From a virus (taxonomy: Duplodnaviria; Heunggongvirae; Uroviricota; Caudoviricetes), in IMG/VR virus record IMGVR_UViG_2675903434_000005: a stretch of DNA of 12,547 bases. One strand, written 5' to 3'. The stretch's first letter is position 1, and each line of letters starts with the position of its first letter. The notes beneath the pieces were generated by a model that saw nothing but the letters and a program-made list of their open reading frames with translations, had not been told where the DNA came from and did not search any database. Shown here piece after piece: positions 1,569 through 12,469 of the stretch. The position numbers were made by a program, and so were the translations under genes.

Positions 1569-1640
1569 CGATTTCTTTATCTCTTACATCAGACGAGCGC
1601 CGGTTGCAGAATACCAGTCACAACCGGCGACAGTTGAACA

Positions 1641-4204: not shown

Positions 4205-4396
4205 TTAAAGACCTGCCGGGATTTCGATATTATCCTGGTGAATAACTTTATCGACCGGGTAACAGTTACCGGGAATTTTCTGTTCGGTTGCTGCAGTCAT
4301 ACACTCCTGCATTGTCCTGTGAACACTGACTGCAATATCAACTGGCTCTCCGGAAACAAGAAAAACTGTCAGAACAAGCACAAATGCTGAATTCAT
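4205..4396 (-). CDS. ydfD: YdfD-like small protein with N-terminal hydrophobic segment (63 aa)
   Basis: ATG at 4396 forms an ATGA overlap with the upstream stop, and an AGGA Shine-Dalgarno sits 8 nt upstream. N-terminus MNSAFVLVLTVFLVSG is a predicted transmembrane or signal segment. The 63-aa length and position directly downstream of dicB match Qin ydfD; assignment is by synteny and length. Confidence 0.6.
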   Translation of the reverse strand: MNSAFVLVLTVFLVSGEPVDIAVSVHRTMQECMTAATEQKIPGNCYPVDKVIHQDNIEIPAGL

Positions 4397-4581
4397 TGTG
4401 CACATCCTTTTGGCATCAGACGTAAACGAGCCAGCATTGAAACAATGCATATTTTATTTAATAGCTCCCGTTCTTGTTTTCTCTTGTTAATGGCATCTTC
4501 AGTAAATACTGGGTTACTGATAGTGACACCAATTTCAAAACAACCTTCAGACGTATTAACGTTTGGTAATAACGTTTTCAT
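4393..4581 (-). CDS. dicB: DicB-like cell-division inhibitor (62 aa)
   Basis: ATG at 4581 is preceded by a GAGGA Shine-Dalgarno at 7-nt spacing. It is 62 aa and sits directly downstream of the DicF sequence on the same strand, as in the Qin dicB operon. Confidence 0.7.
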   Translation of the reverse strand: MKTLLPNVNTSEGCFEIGVTISNPVFTEDAINKRKQERELLNKICIVSMLARLRLMPKGCAQ

Positions 4582-4750: not shown

Positions 4751-4808
4751 AAAAAGGGCGGCAGAGCAGTCACGGAGTAAAACTGATACCGCCAAACGTC
4801 ACCAGAAA
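4751..4808 (-). ncRNA. dicF: DicF small regulatory RNA (antisense regulator of ftsZ and other mRNAs)
   Basis: Minus-strand sequence TTTCTGGTGACGTTTGGCGGTATCAGTTTTACTCCGTGACTGCTCTGCCGCCCTTTTT matches the E. coli DicF sequence as I recall it, including the 3' U-tract terminator. It lies between the ydfC-like gene and dicB, as in Qin. Confidence 0.7.
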
Positions 4809-5682: not shown

Positions 5683-5861
5683 GCTGACCTCATTTCCCCT
5701 TAACGCCGGGGTAGCGGAACAAAAACCTGCTGCATAGTTATTAAAGTTGAACCCTGCCGTCATGTTCTTACGCCTCGGGCTGGCTACTTAACCCCTGACC
5801 ACTGCCTGGTAACTCGAAGTATTGCCCTGCATTCTGTAGGATGGGGTGAGGGAATGAATGA

Positions 5862-5910
5862 AGTTTAGAAAGACGAACTTTCCAGGTCAATGTTTTTTTA
5901 TCAAAACATT
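5862..5910 (-). promoter_or_regulatory. Candidate leftward early promoter (pL-like) with adjacent operator-like palindrome
   Basis: On the minus strand: TTGACC (-35, plus coordinates 5885-5890), 17-bp spacer, TAAACT (-10, 5862-5867), about 175 nt upstream of the ydfA-like start. Abutting the -35 is a perfect palindrome AATGTTTT-N6-AAAACATT (5889-5910) with the same TGTTTT/AAAACA half-sites found next to the repressor start codon. Confidence 0.4.
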
Positions 5911-5974
5911 TTAAGCAGGCAGCTGTTAAGCCATCACCACGATGGCATACAGTTAATCAAATAGATGAGGTTGG

Positions 5975-6613
5975 TTAAATATCTTGTTGAATTTTAAAGC
6001 ATACGCCCAATATGCAAGATAGATCATCCAGCATAATTGAAGGGTAGCGAGGATTCGTGGGGACTAAAAGAATATCCGGCCCTTCTATCTCCAGTTTACG
6101 AATGACAGGTGTTGTGGTCCCTTTGGGTAAGGCAAGGACAATATTTCCTGGTTGTACGGTTCGATCGGGATCAACAAAAACTGTTGAACCATTTGGGATG
6201 GAAACTCCCCCACCAGATGTTGACATACTGTCACTCTCTAGAACAACTGCAAAGGTATTGACCGGGATTTCTCCGACAAGCTGCACACAAGAGGTTATTG
6301 AGGAATTTTTCATATAATCACTCCAGCTTGCTGCCTGCTGAAGTGATAGTAGCGGAACCGTTTTTATCGGCGGTAAAGATAGATCAAGCGAATCACCTGT
6401 ATTTAACTCTCCTCCATTAAGAAGCCAATTTTCGTTTACTTTCAATATTTTTGCCAGTGAACTTATGTAACGCGAGGACGGCGCTCCTCCACCGTTCATC
6501 CATTGACTTACGGAGCCTTTTGATGCGCCAGTGCCATTGACAAGGTCTTTGCCTTTCAGGTTTAGCGCATGCATACGTTGGGTTATGCGTTCAGATATAG
6601 TTTGCTTGCTCAT
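5975..6613 (-). CDS. CI-like prophage repressor (N-terminal HTH, C-terminal S24 LexA-type autopeptidase domain)
   Basis: ORF track 5975..6613 (212 aa). C-terminal motifs align with lambda CI: LESDSM vs VEGNSM (Ser nucleophile), VFVDPDRTVQPGNIVLA vs ILVDPEQAVEPGDFCIA, IRKL vs FKKL (Lys), LVPTNPRYPSI vs LQPLNPQYPMI. N-terminus has an HTH (GASKGSVSQWMNG). Divergent from the Cro-like gene. Confidence 0.9.
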   Translation of the reverse strand: MSKQTISERITQRMHALNLKGKDLVNGTGASKGSVSQWMNGGGAPSSRYISSLAKILKVNENWLLNGGELNTGDSLDLSLPPIKTVPLLSLQQAASWSDYMKNSSITSCVQLVGEIPVNTFAVVLESDSMSTSGGGVSIPNGSTVFVDPDRTVQPGNIVLALPKGTTTPVIRKLEIEGPDILLVPTNPRYPSIMLDDLSCILGVCFKIQQDI

Positions 6614-6704
6614 GTTTTGATTTTAAAACACAGATGGTTTTGTTTCTTGACTTTCTTTGGTTTTGATTATTAAACTTTTGACGTTCAGTTTTATGGAGCG
6701 ACTC
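6613..6704. promoter_or_regulatory. Divergent switch region (OR-like): operator repeats, rightward promoter, leaderless leftward promoter
   Basis: Palindrome TGTTTT-N6-AAAACA at 6613-6630. GTTTTG starts at 6614, 6637 and 6660, exactly 23 bp apart. Rightward TTGACT (6647-6652), 18-bp spacer, TAAACT (6671-6676). Leftward TAAAAT -10 (6620-6625) ends 6 nt before the repressor ATG, implying a leaderless transcript as for lambda cI from PRM. Confidence 0.45.
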
Positions 6705-6935
6705 ATGAAAAAATCAGAAGTATTAGGCTATTTTGGCGGAGTTGTTAAAACAGCCGCAGCTCTAGGAACGTCAAAAACCACAGTCAGCATGTGGGGGGAA
6801 GAGGTTCCGTGGAAATGGGCGTTGCTAATTCAGGCAGTCACTGCCGGGGCGCTCAAATATGAGTTACACATACCGACGGTTGTCATTCCCGGTTCTGATC
6901 ATAATCCGCCTTCTAACCAAGGGGGGGATTCATGA
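6705..6935 (+). CDS. Cro-like HTH regulator of the YdaS family (77 aa)
   Basis: Part of ORF 6657..6935. Start chosen at ATG 6705 (MKKSEVLGYFGG...), with GGAG 6 nt upstream. HTH region VKTAAALGTSKTTVSMW. First rightward gene, divergent from the repressor. Confidence 0.75.
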   Translation: MKKSEVLGYFGGVVKTAAALGTSKTTVSMWGEEVPWKWALLIQAVTAGALKYELHIPTVVIPGSDHNPPSNQGGDS

Positions 6936-7357
6936 AAATCAAGCATGAACACATCCGCATGGCGATGAATGCCTGGGCGCATCCGGACGGCGAAAAAGTA
7001 CCGGCTGCGAAAATTACCAAAGCGTATTTCGAGCTGGGAATGACGTTCCCGGAACTGTATGACGACAGCCATCCGGAAGCCCTGGCTCGCAATACCCAGA
7101 AAATTTTCCGCTGGGTAGAGAAAGACACCCCTGATGCAGTTGAAAAAATTCAGGCGTTGTTACCAGCGATCGAAAAGGCAATGCCACCTTTGCTGGTGGC
7201 CAGAATGCGCAGCCACAGTTCAGCTTATTTTCGGGAGCTGGTGGAGACGCGGGAGCGACTGGTGAGAGACGCTGATGATTTTGTCGCAGTGGCAATCGCC
7301 GGTTTCAATCAGATGAACCGTGGTGGCCCGGCAGGAAATGCTGTGGCAGTACATTGA
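6932..7357 (+). CDS. ydaT: YdaT-like protein (reported functional analogue of lambda CII in cryptic prophages)
   Basis: ORF track 6932..7357 (141 aa). ATGA start/stop overlap with the upstream Cro-like gene. N-terminus MKIKHEHIRMAMN and the ~140-aa length match my recollection of Rac/CP-933P YdaT. Confidence 0.65.
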   Translation: MKIKHEHIRMAMNAWAHPDGEKVPAAKITKAYFELGMTFPELYDDSHPEALARNTQKIFRWVEKDTPDAVEKIQALLPAIEKAMPPLLVARMRSHSSAYFRELVETRERLVRDADDFVAVAIAGFNQMNRGGPAGNAVAVH

Positions 7358-7428
7358 CTGACAATAGCCATATCGAATCGCTTCCGGCAACTCGTGAGTA
7401 AAAAGATTCGGTATCAGAAGAGGTGAGT

Positions 7429-8499
7429 ATGGCTAACGCCTGGCTCAGATTATGGCATGACATGCCAAATGACCCTAAGTGGCGAACAATTGCCAGGGTG
7501 TCAGGGCAGCCAATTGCAACAGTGATGGCAGTGTATATCCACCTCCTGGTGAGCGCGTCACGAAATGTCACGCGAGGTCACATTGATGTCACGACAGAAG
7601 ATTTGGCAAGTGCGCTCGACGTGACAGAAGAGGTAATTGATTCAATTTTGCAGACGATGCAGGGGCGGGTACTTGATGGTGATTTAATCACTGGATGGGA
7701 AAAACGCCAGGTGCTGAAAGAGGACAACGGCAATATTTCGCAAACCGCAAAATCTCCGGCAGAGCGCAAGAGGGCGCAGCGAGAGAGGGAAAGAAAGCGG
7801 GAACAAAATGGCGATTGTCACGGCGCGTCACGAAATGTCACGCACATGTCACGACGAGTCACGACAGATAAAGATACAGATAAAGATACAGATCAAGAAG
7901 ATCAAAACACTATGGTCCATGGCGTAAAAAACGCCACGAACCAGGCAGGGGATGTTCAGACCGTCAATCCTGGTCAGCCAGCAGGCACGACACCGGAAGC
8001 CGATTCAGCGTATGCGCTGAAAGCCGATTCGGGCGCTGTGCAGCAGGTGATGACCCCAAGGCCGGAGCAATCACACCAACTGCAGCAGCCTGAAGCCGAT
8101 TCCGCCATTCAGCGGGAAGCCGATCGGGTAGTCCCGGAAAACACCGGGCTGTCTGTGGGACGAGTGGATTATCCGGATGTGTTCGAACAGGTCTGGCGGG
8201 AGTACCCGTTGCGTGCCGGAGCAAACCCGAAGAAATCCGCTTTCAGTGCCTGGAAGGCCAGATTACGCGAGGGGGTGCCACCAGAGGCCATGCTGGATGG
8301 CGTGAGGCGTTACGCAAGATACTTGGCGGCTACCGGGAAAACGGGAACGGAATTTGTTCAGCGAGCGACGACGTTTTTTGGACCGGACCGGAATTTTGAG
8401 AACCCCTGGTTGCTCCCGGTAAGCGGCACGAACAACCAGCGTTGTGTGAATCATATTTCTGAACCGGATACCGAAATTCCACCGGGCTTCAGGGGGTAA
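7429..8499 (+). CDS. Replication initiator (lambda O-like, replisome-organizer N-terminal domain), origin embedded in the gene
   Basis: ORF track 7423..8499. ATG 7429 is preferred, with AAGAGG about 5 nt upstream. N-terminus ANAWLRLWHDMPNDPKWRTIA resembles phage replisome-organizer N-terminal domains. The gene contains two iteron clusters and an AT-rich tandem repeat, as ori-lambda lies within O. Confidence 0.75.
   Translation: MANAWLRLWHDMPNDPKWRTIARVSGQPIATVMAVYIHLLVSASRNVTRGHIDVTTEDLASALDVTEEVIDSILQTMQGRVLDGDLITGWEKRQVLKEDNGNISQTAKSPAERKRAQRERERKREQNGDCHGASRNVTHMSRRVTTDKDTDKDTDQEDQNTMVHGVKNATNQAGDVQTVNPGQPAGTTPEADSAYALKADSGAVQQVMTPRPEQSHQLQQPEADSAIQREADRVVPENTGLSVGRVDYPDVFEQVWREYPLRAGANPKKSAFSAWKARLREGVPPEAMLDGVRRYARYLAATGKTGTEFVQRATTFFGPDRNFENPWLLPVSGTNNQRCVNHISEPDTEIPPGFRG
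7553..7600. repeat. Iteron cluster 1: four GTCAC(G) copies at 10-11 bp phasing (candidate ori)
   Basis: GTCACG at 7557, 7567 and 7588, plus GTCAC at 7577; helical-turn spacing, inside the replication initiator gene. Confidence 0.5.
7814..7866. repeat. Iteron cluster 2: five GTCACG copies at 10-11 bp phasing (candidate ori)
   Basis: GTCACG at 7817, 7827, 7837, 7848 and 7858. The 21-mer GCGCGTCACGAAATGTCACGC is shared with cluster 1. Confidence 0.5.
7867..7910. repeat. AT-rich tandem repeat next to the iterons (possible DNA-unwinding element with two GATC sites)
   Basis: Perfect 2 x 12-bp tandem GATAAAGATACA (7867-7890), then GATCAAGAAGATCAAAAC; encodes DKDTDKDTDQEDQ within the initiator. Confidence 0.45.
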
Positions 8500-8539
8500 G
8501 TGTTGATTTCTGGTCATGAGGTAATTTTCAGGAGGGCTT

Positions 8540-8962
8540 GTGGCAAAAGTTTTTACACAAGAAGAGCGAGAAAAAATTAAAGGGCAGGTTGTTGAACTCG
8601 TACGCCAGAGTGGGCGTGAGACGTTACGGCAACTGGAAGTCAAGACAGGTGCGACAAGATATCTGATGAGCGTTCTCGCAAGAGAGCTGGTTGCCAGCGG
8701 CGATGTATACAACTCCGGCTACGGGTTATTCCCCTCTGAACAGGCGCGTAAGGACTGGCAAAACGCCCGCAAAAAACTCTCGAGGGCAAAGGTGAAGAAA
8801 CCTGCTGTGGTTGATCCGGACCTTATCTGGTCATCACCTGACGGAGAAATACGTCGCTACGACAGTCGCCTAAACATAATCTGTCGCGAGTGCCGGAAGA
8901 GTGAAGCTATGCAGCGTGTACTGGCTTTCTATCAGGGTAATTTTCAGGAGGCGGTACTGTGA
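8540..8962 (+). CDS. Hypothetical phage protein (140 aa), GTG start
   Basis: ORF track 8540..8962. GTG at 8540 is preceded by GGAGGG; protein-like composition, C-terminal CRECRK; the stop abuts the next gene region. Confidence 0.6.
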   Translation: MAKVFTQEEREKIKGQVVELVRQSGRETLRQLEVKTGATRYLMSVLARELVASGDVYNSGYGLFPSEQARKDWQNARKKLSRAKVKKPAVVDPDLIWSSPDGEIRRYDSRLNIICRECRKSEAMQRVLAFYQGNFQEAVL

Positions 8963-9019
8963 GTGAAATTAGCTATCAGGCTTCAATTACCGCTGGCATT
9001 CGCATCAAAGGAGAGGAGC

Positions 9020-9376
9020 ATGGAAATAAAACCAGAGGATGAGTTAAGCAATATCGTTTTATTTCCGGTAAAAGAGGATGACCCTCGTAATCAGGTTAAT
9101 TTTCTTTATGAGCCATCGGAAAGACCATATTGTCATCACGCCTCTGTCCGGGTTGACGAAAAAGAGCGTCAGGTCCGCTGTAAAATCTGCGGTGCAGTTG
9201 TGGAGCCATTTGACTGGATGCTCTCTGTGGCGAAAAGAGAAACCAGACTGGCAGATGATGTAAGGCTCTTGCGTCAGGAGGAGCGGGAAAGGCGAAAAAA
9301 TATAGAAAAGCTAATTCAGATTGAGCGTAACGCGAAAGCGCGGATACGCAGGGCGACAAAATCCAGAACTGAATAA
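9020..9376 (+). CDS. Hypothetical protein with CHH...CxxC zinc-ribbon-like motif and basic coiled-coil tail (118 aa)
   Basis: Part of ORF 8963..9376. Start chosen at ATG 9020 (MEIKPEDE), with GGAGAGGAG immediately upstream. Motif PYCHHASVRVDEKERQVRCKICG. Confidence 0.6.
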   Translation: MEIKPEDELSNIVLFPVKEDDPRNQVNFLYEPSERPYCHHASVRVDEKERQVRCKICGAVVEPFDWMLSVAKRETRLADDVRLLRQEERERRKNIEKLIQIERNAKARIRRATKSRTE

Positions 9377-9469
9377 TTAAATTTAGCTCTGTTAAAAATT
9401 TAATCCTTAACCGGAGGGATTTCTGCACCCTCAGAACATCAGGAGGCCGCCCGAAAGGGCGGTAGTTAA

Positions 9470-9652
9470 ATGCGAAAGTTTAAAATAATTATTGAAACGG
9501 GAATAGCCGGTGGAGATTTCGAGGATGAATTCGAAGTGGATGATGATGCGACGCCTGATGAAATACATGACGAAGCAAAAGATATTTTCTTTAACTACTG
9601 CAATTACTCATATCACGAAATAAAAGACGAAGAGGAAGAACAAAATGGCTGA
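9470..9652 (+). CDS. Small highly acidic protein (60 aa, about 21 Asp/Glu against 5 Lys/Arg)
   Basis: ORF track 9470..9652. An AGGAGG Shine-Dalgarno lies 23 nt upstream, with a GC hairpin between it and the ATG. Confidence 0.55.
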   Translation: MRKFKIIIETGIAGGDFEDEFEVDDDATPDEIHDEAKDIFFNYCNYSYHEIKDEEEEQNG

Positions 9653-9821
9653 TTTTGGTTCAACTAAATACAACGTCAGTTTTGAAGAATGGCATGAACT
9701 GTTAATGGACTATGCAGAGTTACGTGGTGGCAGTGCTGCTGATGCTGAAGCATGGCGTGATGATTATGAAGCAGGAAAAACTCCGGTCGAAGCATATTGT
9801 GATGAGTGGGGCGATGAATGA
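9645..9821 (+). CDS. Small acidic Trp-rich protein (58 aa)
   Basis: Translated by hand: MADFGSTKYNVSFEEWHELLMDYAELRGGSAADAEAWRDDYEAGKTPVEAYCDEWGDE. GAGGAAG Shine-Dalgarno about 7 nt upstream; overlaps the upstream stop and ends in an ATGA overlap with the next ORF. Confidence 0.5.
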   Translation: MADFGSTKYNVSFEEWHELLMDYAELRGGSAADAEAWRDDYEAGKTPVEAYCDEWGDE

Positions 9822-10134
9822 GCGAGGTTAATTATCAGGAAGGGCATGAAACGGCGGGGCAAGCAAAAACAGTGGCATGGCGATATCGCTACGTGAAAAA
9901 AAAGGCGTTACGGACTTTCAGGGGAAGTAGTGGTCTGGTGACTGGAAATATGTACCGAAAAAAGAGGATTGTAACGACAGGCCGAACTATGAAATTCAGG
10001 CCTTATTCACTGCCCCGCCAGTCCCGGTTACATCAGAAGAACTGGTTAAAGCTGTGCACTTTTATGAACAACTAAAACGCGAAAATCCACCAGCATCCGG
10101 AAACCTGATTACAGATTCCCAGATAAGGCAATGA
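9818..10134 (+). pseudogene. Disrupted coding region: ATG-initiated frame and stop-coupled frame differ by -1 (frameshift pseudogene or programmed frameshift)
   Basis: Frame A (ATG 9818, coupled to the upstream stop) becomes Lys/Arg-rich and ends at 10075. The -1 frame holds a protein-like 67-codon stretch (WSGDWKYVPKKEDCNDRPNYEIQALF...DSQIRQ) ending in TGA 10132-10134 coupled to a downstream ATG, but has no start and follows TAG 9928-9930. A_AAA_AAG heptamers are phased in frame A at 9898-9904 and 9958-9964. Confidence 0.4.
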
Positions 10135-10229
10135 GCTACCTGGCGCAGAACGGGCTGATAAGTATGGGGAATGTTTTACGATGAATATTTAGACTAAAGA
10201 GTTTGTAACGCTATGTAAGTGATTTTTTC

Positions 10230-10258
10230 TGGTTTAGATATTTATATGTCCGGCCAAA
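10230..10258. repeat. Upstream copy of an imperfect ~30-bp direct repeat flanking the AT-rich membrane-protein gene
   Basis: TGGTTTAGATATTTATATGTCCGGCCAAA here versus TGGTTTAGTTGGATATTTACTGTGCCGGACAAA at 10501-10534. Confidence 0.5.
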
Positions 10259-10304
10259 TTGAGGTGTGTTTAAATGTAATTGCACATTGATTGTAGGAGG
10301 AATA

Positions 10305-10484
10305 ATGAAAAACGCATTGCAGTTTTTGTTTGTTGCGTTCTGGTTGTTCGTATCATGTATGCCCATCATCTTCACAGCAAGGTATATGGAAAAAGTTGAT
10401 GTTTTGATATTAATATTTGGATATATAAATGCCCTTTTTTTAGGGGTGTTCATGGCGGTCATGTGCATTGAATACTGGCGGTAA
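10305..10484 (+). CDS. Small two-helix membrane protein (59 aa) on an AT-rich islet
   Basis: Part of ORF 10266..10484. Start chosen at ATG 10305, with a perfect AGGAGG 5 nt upstream. Two hydrophobic helices (ALQFLFVAFWLFVSCMPIIF and VLILIFGYINALFLGVFMAVMCI). GC is visibly lower than in the flanks. Confidence 0.55.
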   Translation: MKNALQFLFVAFWLFVSCMPIIFTARYMEKVDVLILIFGYINALFLGVFMAVMCIEYWR

Positions 10485-10567: not shown

Positions 10568-10686
10568 GACTGCGGGTGCTTGAGGCTATCTGTCTCAGGC
10601 ATGAACACCAAAAGGCAGATAGAGAAAAGCCCCAGTTAACATTACGCGTCCTGCAAGACGCTTAACATTAATCTGAGGCCATATCT

Positions 10687-10746
10687 ATGCGACACATAGA
10701 GATTAGCCTCTTACGGACCGAAAGGTCAAGGAGAAGCAGGCTATGA
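10687..10746 (+). CDS. Short leader ORF translationally coupled to hok (mok-like, 19 codons)
   Basis: ATG 10687 with GAGG upstream; its TGA stop (10744-10746) overlaps the hok ATG (10743-10745) as ATGA. Confidence 0.35.
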   Translation: MRHIEISLLRTERSRRSRL

Positions 10747-10898
10747 AGCAGCAAAAGGCGATGTTAATCGCCCTGATCGTCATCTGTTTAACCGTCATAG
10801 TGACGGCACTGGTAACGAGGAAAGACCTCTGCGAGGTACGAATCCGAACCGGCCAGACGGAGGTCGCTGTCTTCACAGCTTACGAACCTGAGGAGTAA
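10743..10898 (+). CDS. hokD: Hok/Gef-family type I toxin (51 aa), RelF/HokD-like
   Basis: Translated by hand: MKQQKAMLIALIVICLTVIVTALVTRKDLCEVRIRTGQTEVAVFTAYEPEE, which has the Hok/Gef signature (single TM helix, TRKxLCE, conserved periplasmic tail). AAGGAG Shine-Dalgarno upstream. Position before the Rem-like and YdfU-like genes matches Qin hokD. Confidence 0.8.
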   Translation: MKQQKAMLIALIVICLTVIVTALVTRKDLCEVRIRTGQTEVAVFTAYEPEE

Positions 10899-12459: not shown

Positions 12460-12469
12460 NNNNNNNNNN
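12460..12469. other. Run of 10 ambiguous bases (assembly gap or mask)
   Basis: Literal n x 10 in the sequence. Confidence 0.99.

Follow-up and report, generated by a model that had tools for sequence, protein, structure and literature searches.

Do the two short, overlapping genes that follow the rightward promoter of an Escherichia coli lambdoid prophage encode a toxin and its antitoxin, or do they encode the Cro- and CII-like members of a lysogeny switch? The question is raised by positions 6705–7357 of the 12,547-nucleotide stretch of viral DNA analyzed here (IMG/VR record IMGVR_UViG_2675903434_000005; the window). A sequence-only reading had favored functional analogues of Cro and CII over a toxin–antitoxin module, and that preference is upheld by the published function of near-identical homologues, by the position of a binding site (the YdaT box), and by the order of the genes. 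We conclude that 6705–7357 is very probably the rightward early operon of a lambdoid prophage, that is, a switch composed of a Cro-type repressor and a CII analogue, YdaT. The question itself is already settled by experiments on near-identical proteins, and the cassette is already known; our additions are a correction of the annotation, the recognition that the ATGA overlap between the two genes is allele-specific, and a comparative case for a box-proximal, class II-type PRE promoter.

The immunity module and its divergent repressor

The window belongs to an E. coli lambdoid prophage: its left end encodes an integrase, an excisionase, and a RecE-like exonuclease; dicB, DicF, and ydfC/ydfB/DUF1391 follow, and then a divergently transcribed CI-like repressor. 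To the right of cro and ydaT lie a replication initiator (7423–8499, plus strand), which occupies the position of lambda O, and a DUF977 protein. The initiator matches PHROG 3729 ('replication initiation protein', E = 1.8e-256), is named 'phage replisome organizer' by PGAP, and marks the right-hand end of the immunity module, in which the gene order is cI, cro, ydaT, and replication genes. Positions 5900–7500 are 100% identical in E. coli strain 602354 and in three other genomes, and positions 5693–10354 are 98.8% identical to the deposited genome of phage vB_EcoS-640R1.

The repressor gene (5975–6613, minus strand) encodes 212 residues with an N-terminal HTH and a C-terminal S24 (LexA/CI-type) domain. 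The protein scores 49.4 bits against Pfam Peptidase_S24 (cutoff 23.3) and 20.8 bits against HTH_3, slightly under the cutoff; PHROG 4 ('transcriptional repressor') covers residues 2–211, and the alignment to lambda CI extends over residues 13–204. In this alignment S129 coincides with the Ser149 nucleophile of lambda CI, A94–A95 stands in place of the A111–G112 cleavage site, and R172, with K173 beside it, is aligned with K192, the catalytic Lys; this pattern is kept in relatives down to 84% identity (the relatives found by the protein-homologue search were all at least 72% identical). The description of the protein as a classical CI/S24 repressor is thus only partly justified: it fits the S24 domain and the Ser nucleophile but, by alignment, neither the Ala-Ala site nor the Arg at the Lys position. 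Nor does the pairing with an S24 repressor make the locus a special test case, as had been proposed: such pairings are frequent (in about 1,035 complete E. coli genomes), and by alignment the S24 domain is non-canonical at two hallmark positions.

In identical DNA, PGAP annotates only the C-terminal 112 residues of the repressor; the full 212-residue reading frame is open in the window and is 84–99% identical in relatives. PGAP likely picks a downstream start because the ATG of cI (6613) has no Shine-Dalgarno sequence, as read from the DNA, which would fit a leaderless message. A PRM-like −10 hexamer (TAAAAT; 6620–6625, minus strand) ends 7 nt before the A of this ATG, and cI is probably translated from a leaderless mRNA by analogy with lambda cI and with paaR2 of CP-933P, both of which are demonstrated to be leaderless.

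Three operator-like repeats with a spacing of 23 bp (6613–6629, 6636–6652, and 6659–6675; consensus about GGTTTTGATTnTTAAAC) were found as direct-repeat families D1 and D2; they overlap both the start of cI and the −35 and −10 hexamers of a PR-like promoter. When the window was searched with the operator pattern, these sites were the only ones returned (2 matches vs 0.27 expected). By analogy with lambda OR1–3, CI and Cro would bind these repeats. The PR-like sigma-70 promoter (TTGACT-18-TAAACT; 6647–6676, plus strand) matches the consensus at 9 of 12 positions in a promoter scan and is located within the divergent intergenic region (91 bp), 29 nt ahead of the start of the HTH gene. The consensus match alone is not significant; the candidate promoter is correctly placed, and the proposal that the HTH/YdaT pair directly follows a rightward promoter is consistent with it.

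The Cro-type gene and the G run at its 3′ end

The first gene of the pair (6705–6935, plus strand), located in the 'YdaS' position, begins with the ATG at 6705, is preceded by a Shine-Dalgarno sequence (GGAG, 6695–6698), and ends with the TGA at 6933–6935; its coordinates had been read correctly, but the protein contains 76 residues, the earlier count of 77 having included the stop codon. We assign it to the P22 Cro/DicC family, since it exceeds the curated threshold of Pfam P22_Cro (PF14549) across the Cro domain (57.8 bits, cutoff 30.2, E = 9.4e-16, residues 2–53). The protein also matches PHROG 409 and the structure of P22 Cro (PDB 1RZS; E = 2.3e-8, residues 1–53). The Cro-type protein would be expected to compete with the divergent CI-like repressor for the three operators.

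These assignments place the module among known switches. It resembles that of lambda in having divergent cI and cro-cII transcription units, three operators at 23-bp spacing, and a probably leaderless cI; it differs in that its Cro is an all-helical HTH protein of the P22 type. PF14549 also includes DicC, and the likeness to the DicA–DicC pair of Qin extends to the N-terminus of the repressor, which resembles that of DicA, and to dicB and the DicF sRNA, which lie leftward in the window. However, the scores against the NCBIfam DicC and DicA models are far under their cutoffs (31.5 bits for the HTH protein against DicC), and the window repressor has an added S24 domain.

The ATGA overlap of the HTH gene with ydaT that had been noticed earlier is genuine: it is located at 6932–6935 of the window sequence. 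It is also allele-specific. A run of seven G's (G7; 6921–6927, plus strand) sets the frame of the 3′ end of cro and provides a Shine-Dalgarno-like stretch for ydaT; with G7, Cro ends in ...GGDS* and the genes share ATGA, whereas with G6, Cro ends in ...GGIHENQA*, the stop codon is at 6946–6948, and the overlap with ydaT is 17 nt. Among 22 rows sampled at even spacing from E. coli genomes with the cro type of the window, about 2 have G7, the minority allele, and the remaining 20 have one base fewer; G6 is the form found in most E. coli records, as well as in O157 strain F7508 (L002) and phage vB_EcoS-640R1 (L009). The G7 frame is the frame of CP-933P YdaS (both proteins finish in ...DS* with an ATGA overlap), and both types of overlap, ATGA and 17 nt, are native with other cro types.

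PGAP flags cro as 'frameshifted' in a genome that is 100% identical over 5900–7500 because G6 is the common allele and the window has G7. The flag probably overstates the damage, as the change in the G run touches only the tail beyond the Cro domain. Some genomes differ from the window over 1.6 kb by the single-base gap in the G run alone; a single-base gap between near-identical genomes fits either slippage or homopolymer sequencing error.

YdaT, its box, and a predicted PRE-like promoter

The second gene, ydaT (6932–7357, plus strand; ATG at 6932, TGA at 7355–7357), has the coordinates and the length, 141 residues, that had been reported for it. The protein exceeds the threshold of Pfam YdaT_toxin (PF06254; 39.6 bits, cutoff 21) and matches PHROG 163 ('CII-like transcriptional activator', E = 1.9e-45). 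It is 97.2% identical (4 substitutions in 141 residues) to PDB 3C4R, a YdaT-family protein from E. coli O6 solved by structural genomics, for which a structure only, with no functional data, was deposited. It is also 86.5% identical to the YdaT of CP-933P (PDB 8BT1), with 4 differences in the 96 residues of the DNA-binding domain (residues 1–96). In 8BT1 the HTH domain is POU-like, and the long helix after it packs into the four-helix bundle of a tetramer with 222 symmetry (Prolic-Kalinsek 2023, PMC9986795; Jurenas 2021, PMC8630535), and 3C4R is described as forming the same tetramer (PMC9986795). R53 and R60, that is, all of the DNA-contacting residues named in the structural paper (PMC9986795), are kept in the window protein; changes in helix 50–63 relative to 8BT1 are limited to V62L and E63D; and of the seven residues of the bundle core, L110, V111, F117, V118, and A121 are retained and two are replaced conservatively (I103L, V114A). 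Its identity to the solved tetramers therefore identifies window YdaT, by homology, as a tetrameric factor predicted to have a POU-like HTH domain and the C-terminal helix of the four-helix bundle.

A CII-like fold had been anticipated for YdaT, but the solved homologues have instead the POU-like HTH and the 222 tetramer. A search for Pfam domains at E ≤ 0.01 returned no CII match, and the PDB matches at E ≤ 1 include no structure of lambda CII; YdaT is an analogue of lambda CII by position and function only and is not identified as its homologue. The DNA sites also differ: lambda CII recognizes a direct repeat, TTGC-N6-TTGC, whereas the YdaT tetramer recognizes an inverted repeat. Phages Tritos, vB_EcoS-813R8, and vB_EcoS-640R1 encode a YdaT that is 100% identical to that of the window, and the records for vB_EcoS-813R8 and vB_EcoS-640R1 label it 'activator protein cII'.

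In DNase I footprinting, the YdaT of CP-933P protects TTGATT-N6-AATCAA, which is located where ydaS meets ydaT (PMC9986795, PMC8630535). The best match of the window to TTGATTN6AATCAA is GGGATTCATGAAAATCAA at 6925–6942 (GGGATT-CATGAA-AATCAA; 10 of 12 positions, 2 mismatches), an inverted repeat at the gene junction with the ATG of ydaT in its spacer; this putative YdaT box is the equivalent of the CP-933P site OM, TTGATTCATGAAAATCAA, which has the same position, the same location of the ATG in its spacer, and the same ATGA overlap. We identified the CP-933P junction in IMG/VR by means of the published ydaS primer sequence; one locus (L003) that had been considered as CP-933P was rejected, being a PaaR/ParE paralogue whose YdaS and YdaT do not match those published. 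The placement of the box on the ydaT start codon is in accord with the published OM, OL, and OR oligonucleotides. In Rac, a YdaT box, ATGATTCATGAAAATCAA, is located at the ydaT ATG and is bound by Rac YdaT (PMC11879457). One HTH pair of the YdaT tetramer would thus be expected to bind the inverted repeat spanning the start codon of ydaT; the site expected from the homologues is the cro/ydaT junction, which is some 310 bp away from the start of the repressor gene, and not the region directly upstream of the repressor gene in which binding had been anticipated.

The promoter-proximal half-site of the window box is AATCCC, not AATCAA; those of relatives are AATCAA, AATCAT, and AATCAC. The outer two positions vary among relatives, and a C at the fifth position was seen only in the cro type of the window. 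AATCCC is the most divergent half-site among the E. coli-type loci, and the affinity of the window box may be lower for that reason. A putative equivalent of OL, the weak secondary YdaT site of CP-933P, is present in the 5′ coding region of ydaT (6961–6986; 1 mismatch to the OL oligonucleotide), although its conservation may reflect a simple coding constraint. Additional YdaT boxes are not enriched in the window: 9 matches at ≤3 mismatches were found vs 10.1 expected, and only the junction site has 2. Separately, one of the 3-mismatch boxes (1634–1651, upstream of xis) is accompanied by TAnnnT at offset 39, a coincidence for which the chance expectation is about 0.8, and TTGATT half-sites fall inside two of the CI/Cro operator-like repeats.

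CP-933P YdaT activates a leftward promoter, PRE933P (PMC9986795, PMC8630535). The reporter fragment published for PRE933P (120 bp) includes the box and the hexamer TACAAT; since it begins a mere 18 nt rightward of the box, the promoter must be located at or to the left of the box. We compared the cro 3′ ends adjoining the box, numbering the box as nt 1–18 on the minus strand: a TAnnnT hexamer is present at nt 39–41, that is, on the left side and 20–22 nt from the box, in all 20 of the clusters. The offset is kept in 12 of 12 contexts that share <50% identity over the adjacent 60 nt; the background elsewhere is 0.78 of 20 per average 3-offset window. The hexamer is TATGAT in the window (6903 to 6898, minus strand) and TACAAT in CP-933P; in a Rac-type locus, with a YdaT only 31% identical, TACGAT occupies the same position (offset 39). 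The −35 region is poor in all of the loci compared (CCCCCC in the window). With a start about 7 nt past the hexamer, that is, near 6891, the center of the box would be near −42.5, the position of a class II activator; this geometry suggests that YdaT activates a box-proximal promoter from the class II position, and we predict that TATGAT at 6898–6903 (minus strand) is the −10 hexamer of a YdaT-dependent PRE-like promoter.

Published descriptions of the promoter differ from this one. In CP-933P the box was placed downstream of PRE933P and was said to contain the transcription start (Prolic-Kalinsek 2023, PMC9986795); in Rac, where mutation of the box abolishes the 29-fold activation of leftward transcription by YdaT (PMC11879457), activation was attributed to a promoter at a distance of about 190 bp (Wons 2025, PMC11879457). 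The proximal −10 that we propose is absent from both descriptions.

For close homologues of window YdaT, binding to the box, tetramerization, and activation of the reverse promoter have been demonstrated, and the CP-933P protein is not toxic. By analogy with the CP-933P and Rac proteins, and given the conserved spacing of the −10 hexamer, window YdaT would bind its box and activate the leftward promoter. The proposed sequence of events begins with a transcript from the PR-like promoter (6647–6676) that would supply the Cro-type repressor and, from the overlapping frame, YdaT; YdaT centered about 42 bp upstream of a start near 6891 would then activate the weak PRE-like promoter (TATGAT, no recognizable −35), and the leftward transcript, antisense through cro and into the repressor gene, would help repression to be established or maintained, in the manner of lambda CII. 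The predicted arrangement also resembles lambda in its leftward promoter at the cro/cII junction, which depends on an activator, has a poor −35, and gives a transcript antisense to cro. Besides the divergent half-site and the differing published descriptions of the promoter, three observations count against the model: CP-933P YdaT is without effect on PRM, PR, or PL (PMC9986795, PMC8630535), Rac YdaT, 31% identical, is toxic on overexpression, and the PRE-type transcript would meet a cI start without a visible Shine-Dalgarno sequence. An OOP-like antisense terminator inside ydaT (minus strand, 7200–7183) was considered and rejected, the hairpin being broken in two loci (L014 and L016) and the T-run missing in a Klebsiella homologue; terminator matches are near chance in number (3 found vs 1.5 expected).

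The G run falls exactly in the −35 region of the predicted PRE-like promoter. It is a long shot that G6/G7 is a slippage-prone tuning element of lysogeny; if it were, one G more or less would alter together the spacing from the box to the −10 (20 vs 21 nt), the C-terminus of Cro, and the cro/ydaT overlap, the change in overlap (ATGA vs 17 nt) would alter cro/ydaT translational coupling, and sibling prophages otherwise identical over 1.6 kb would differ heritably in the set-point of lysogeny.

Known relatives, competing explanations, and annotation

The closest characterized system is PaaR2–YdaS–YdaT from cryptic prophage CP-933P/Sp12 (E. coli O157:H7), in which, as in the window, a repressor is followed by a cro-like gene, ydaT, and replication genes; both have the box over the start codon of ydaT, an ATGA overlap, and the weak OL site, and their DNA homology begins only at window position 6927. 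The two differ in the repressor (PaaR2, with no S24 domain and accompanied by the ParE2/PaaA2 toxin–antitoxin pair, vs the 212-residue CI-like HTH + S24 protein), in the upstream HTH protein (the 100-residue, XRE-type YdaS vs the 76-residue protein of the P22 Cro/DicC type), and in the box (a perfect TTGATT vs GGGATT). RacR–YdaS–YdaT of Rac (E. coli K-12) is more distant, with about 31% YdaT identity, but shares the tetramer, the box at the ydaT ATG, and leftward activation toward the repressor gene, and Rac YdaT cross-reacts with the CP-933P box (PMC11879457); Rac also has extra intergenic YdaT operators, toxicity mediated by rcsA, and a RacR without S24.

Of the 5,426 complete E. coli genomes, 1,035 have the cro + ydaT pair at ≥80% coverage, and 3,036 have ydaT alone. 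Most other ydaT loci are homologous to the window at the DNA level from 6927 onward, a position within the left half-site of the box; therefore, ydaT is a cassette that recombines onto many immunity modules. In E. coli genomes and in IMG/VR pattern scans, from which the diversity of junctions was drawn (the genome-contig scan gave 4 loci), the cassette is joined to at least 12 unrelated upstream genes, and the adjoining repressors include S24-type CI proteins, 139-residue HTH proteins, a RacR-annotated repressor, PaaR-type proteins with ParE, and DicA-like proteins.

It is extremely improbable that the pair is a type II toxin–antitoxin module, in which YdaT would be the toxin and the upstream HTH protein the antitoxin that neutralizes it and autoregulates the operon. 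The small, overlapping two-gene layout and the database names (Pfam 'YdaT_toxin'; PGAP 'toxin YdaT family protein') fit such a module, but the YdaT of CP-933P, 86.5% identical, is a non-toxic, sequence-specific DNA-binding activator (PMC9986795, PMC8630535); derepression or overexpression of Rac YdaS and YdaT is toxic, but this toxicity is explained by transcriptional activation of rcsA and involves no toxin activity. Moreover, the upstream protein of the window belongs to the P22 Cro family, ydaT is located in the cII position ahead of the replication genes, and its shuffling among many unrelated upstream HTH genes and repressors contradicts the co-evolving interface of a toxin and its antitoxin. 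That YdaT mainly regulates host genes or acts as a repressor, and is not a CII-like activator that promotes lysogeny, is also quite improbable, although regulation of host genes, as in Rac, may be an additional function. Rac YdaT does bind and activate host rcsA and also binds intergenic operators, the second DNA-binding face of the tetramer is unoccupied (PMC9986795, PMC8630535), and the TTGATT half-sites within two CI/Cro operators would suit such a role; however, full boxes in the window do not exceed chance expectation, CP-933P YdaT does not bind the cI–cro intergenic region, and the fixed spacing between the box and the −10 hexamer points to a phage promoter as the selected target.

We also consider it unlikely, if somewhat less so, that the locus is a decayed remnant, that is, that a frameshift has made cro a pseudogene, that cI is truncated or cannot be cleaved, and that the switch no longer works. 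The 'frameshifted' cro and the 112-residue repressor called by PGAP suggest decay, as does the minority status of G7; but the frameshift alters only the last residues of Cro (...GGDS* vs ...GGIHENQA*), well past the Cro domain (residues 1–53), the G7 frame ends as does that of the functional CP-933P YdaS (...DS*, ATGA overlap), and the short repressor call would be explained by a leaderless start. The Ala-Ala at the cleavage site and the Arg at the position of the catalytic Lys would fit a non-cleavable repressor; nevertheless, the 212-residue reading frame is intact, its identity among relatives is 84–99%, and the module is 98.8% identical to that of a deposited phage genome.

The Cro-type repressor and the CII analogue YdaT together thus remain the best account of 6705–7357. 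The label 'toxin YdaT family protein' is attached to this protein in thousands of E. coli genomes, and, together, the PGAP labels (a toxin, a frameshifted cro, and half of a repressor) could make an intact lysogeny switch look like the remnant of a toxin–antitoxin module. The predicted geometry of the box-proximal promoter refines, in a way that can be tested, what has been published on PRE in CP-933P and on leftward activation in Rac.

The repressor gene and its S24 domain

In the window, an open reading frame of 212 residues with a helix-turn-helix and an S24 domain occupies 5975-6613 (minus strand); in identical or near-identical genomes, PGAP calls only the C-terminal 112 residues of the same repressor, as a 'LexA family protein'. 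No Shine-Dalgarno sequence is found at the ATG of this CI-like repressor gene (cI), and only 7 nt separate that ATG from the end of a TAAAAT hexamer upstream; taken together, these two features suggest that the cI mRNA is leaderless.

The equivalences of the S24 residues were read from an alignment to lambda CI. The serine nucleophile is kept (S129); the repressor has Ala-Ala (A94-A95) where the cleavage site is Ala-Gly, and an arginine (R172, in R172-K173) at the position of the catalytic lysine. All three features are kept in relatives of the repressor down to 84% identity. The S24 repressor that adjoins ydaT in L014, another ydaT-bearing locus, differs: it has Ala-Gly and Lys-Lys, but alanine at the serine position (EGDAM).

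Sequences resembling the YdaT box and the OOP terminator

The YdaT box, an inverted repeat of the type TTGATT-N6-AATCAA at the ydaT start codon (6925-6942), has a look-alike at 1634-1651 (CTGATTCTTAATGTTCAA on the minus strand, three mismatches), ~70 nt from the excisionase gene on its upstream side. A TATTCT hexamer (1608-1613, minus strand; TAnnnT) lies at offset 39 from this site, as at the YdaT box. The pair could be a PI-like promoter for int/xis, but one coincidence of a three-mismatch box with TAnnnT at this offset is expected by chance. Of the three CI/Cro operator repeats, two also contain the half-site hexamer TTGATT (6616-6621 and 6662-6667), and neither of these sites has a full YdaT box.

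Antisense within ydaT (7183-7200, minus strand), a terminator-like hairpin followed by a T-run resembles the lambda OOP terminator; the hairpin and T-run are not kept in homologous loci, and we judged them to be due to chance.

Other features of the window

As in Qin-type prophages, the sRNA DicF (4756-4807, minus strand; Rfam, 76.7 bits) and DicB, an intact cell-division inhibitor of 62 residues (4393-4581, minus strand), lie to the left of the immunity region. A hok/sok type I toxin-antitoxin locus (10574-10745 and 10743-10898, plus strand) consists of a sok RNA (Rfam, 106.7 bits) adjoining a Hok-like reading frame of 51 residues. Near the right end, 10 consecutive N bases (12460-12469) are masked or unresolved sequence.

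The G-run and the mosaic boundary

The run at 6921-6927 is either G7 or G6 in prophages that show no other difference over 1.6 kb; its length moves the cro stop codon (6933 vs 6946) and changes the distance from the YdaT box to the predicted -10 hexamer (6898-6903, minus strand) by 1 nt. A sharp mosaic boundary is located at 6927, with most E. coli ydaT loci matching the window only rightwards from there. On the left, the cassette of ydaT and replication genes adjoins at least 12 cro 3' ends that are unrelated to one another, and it occurs with several repressor types.
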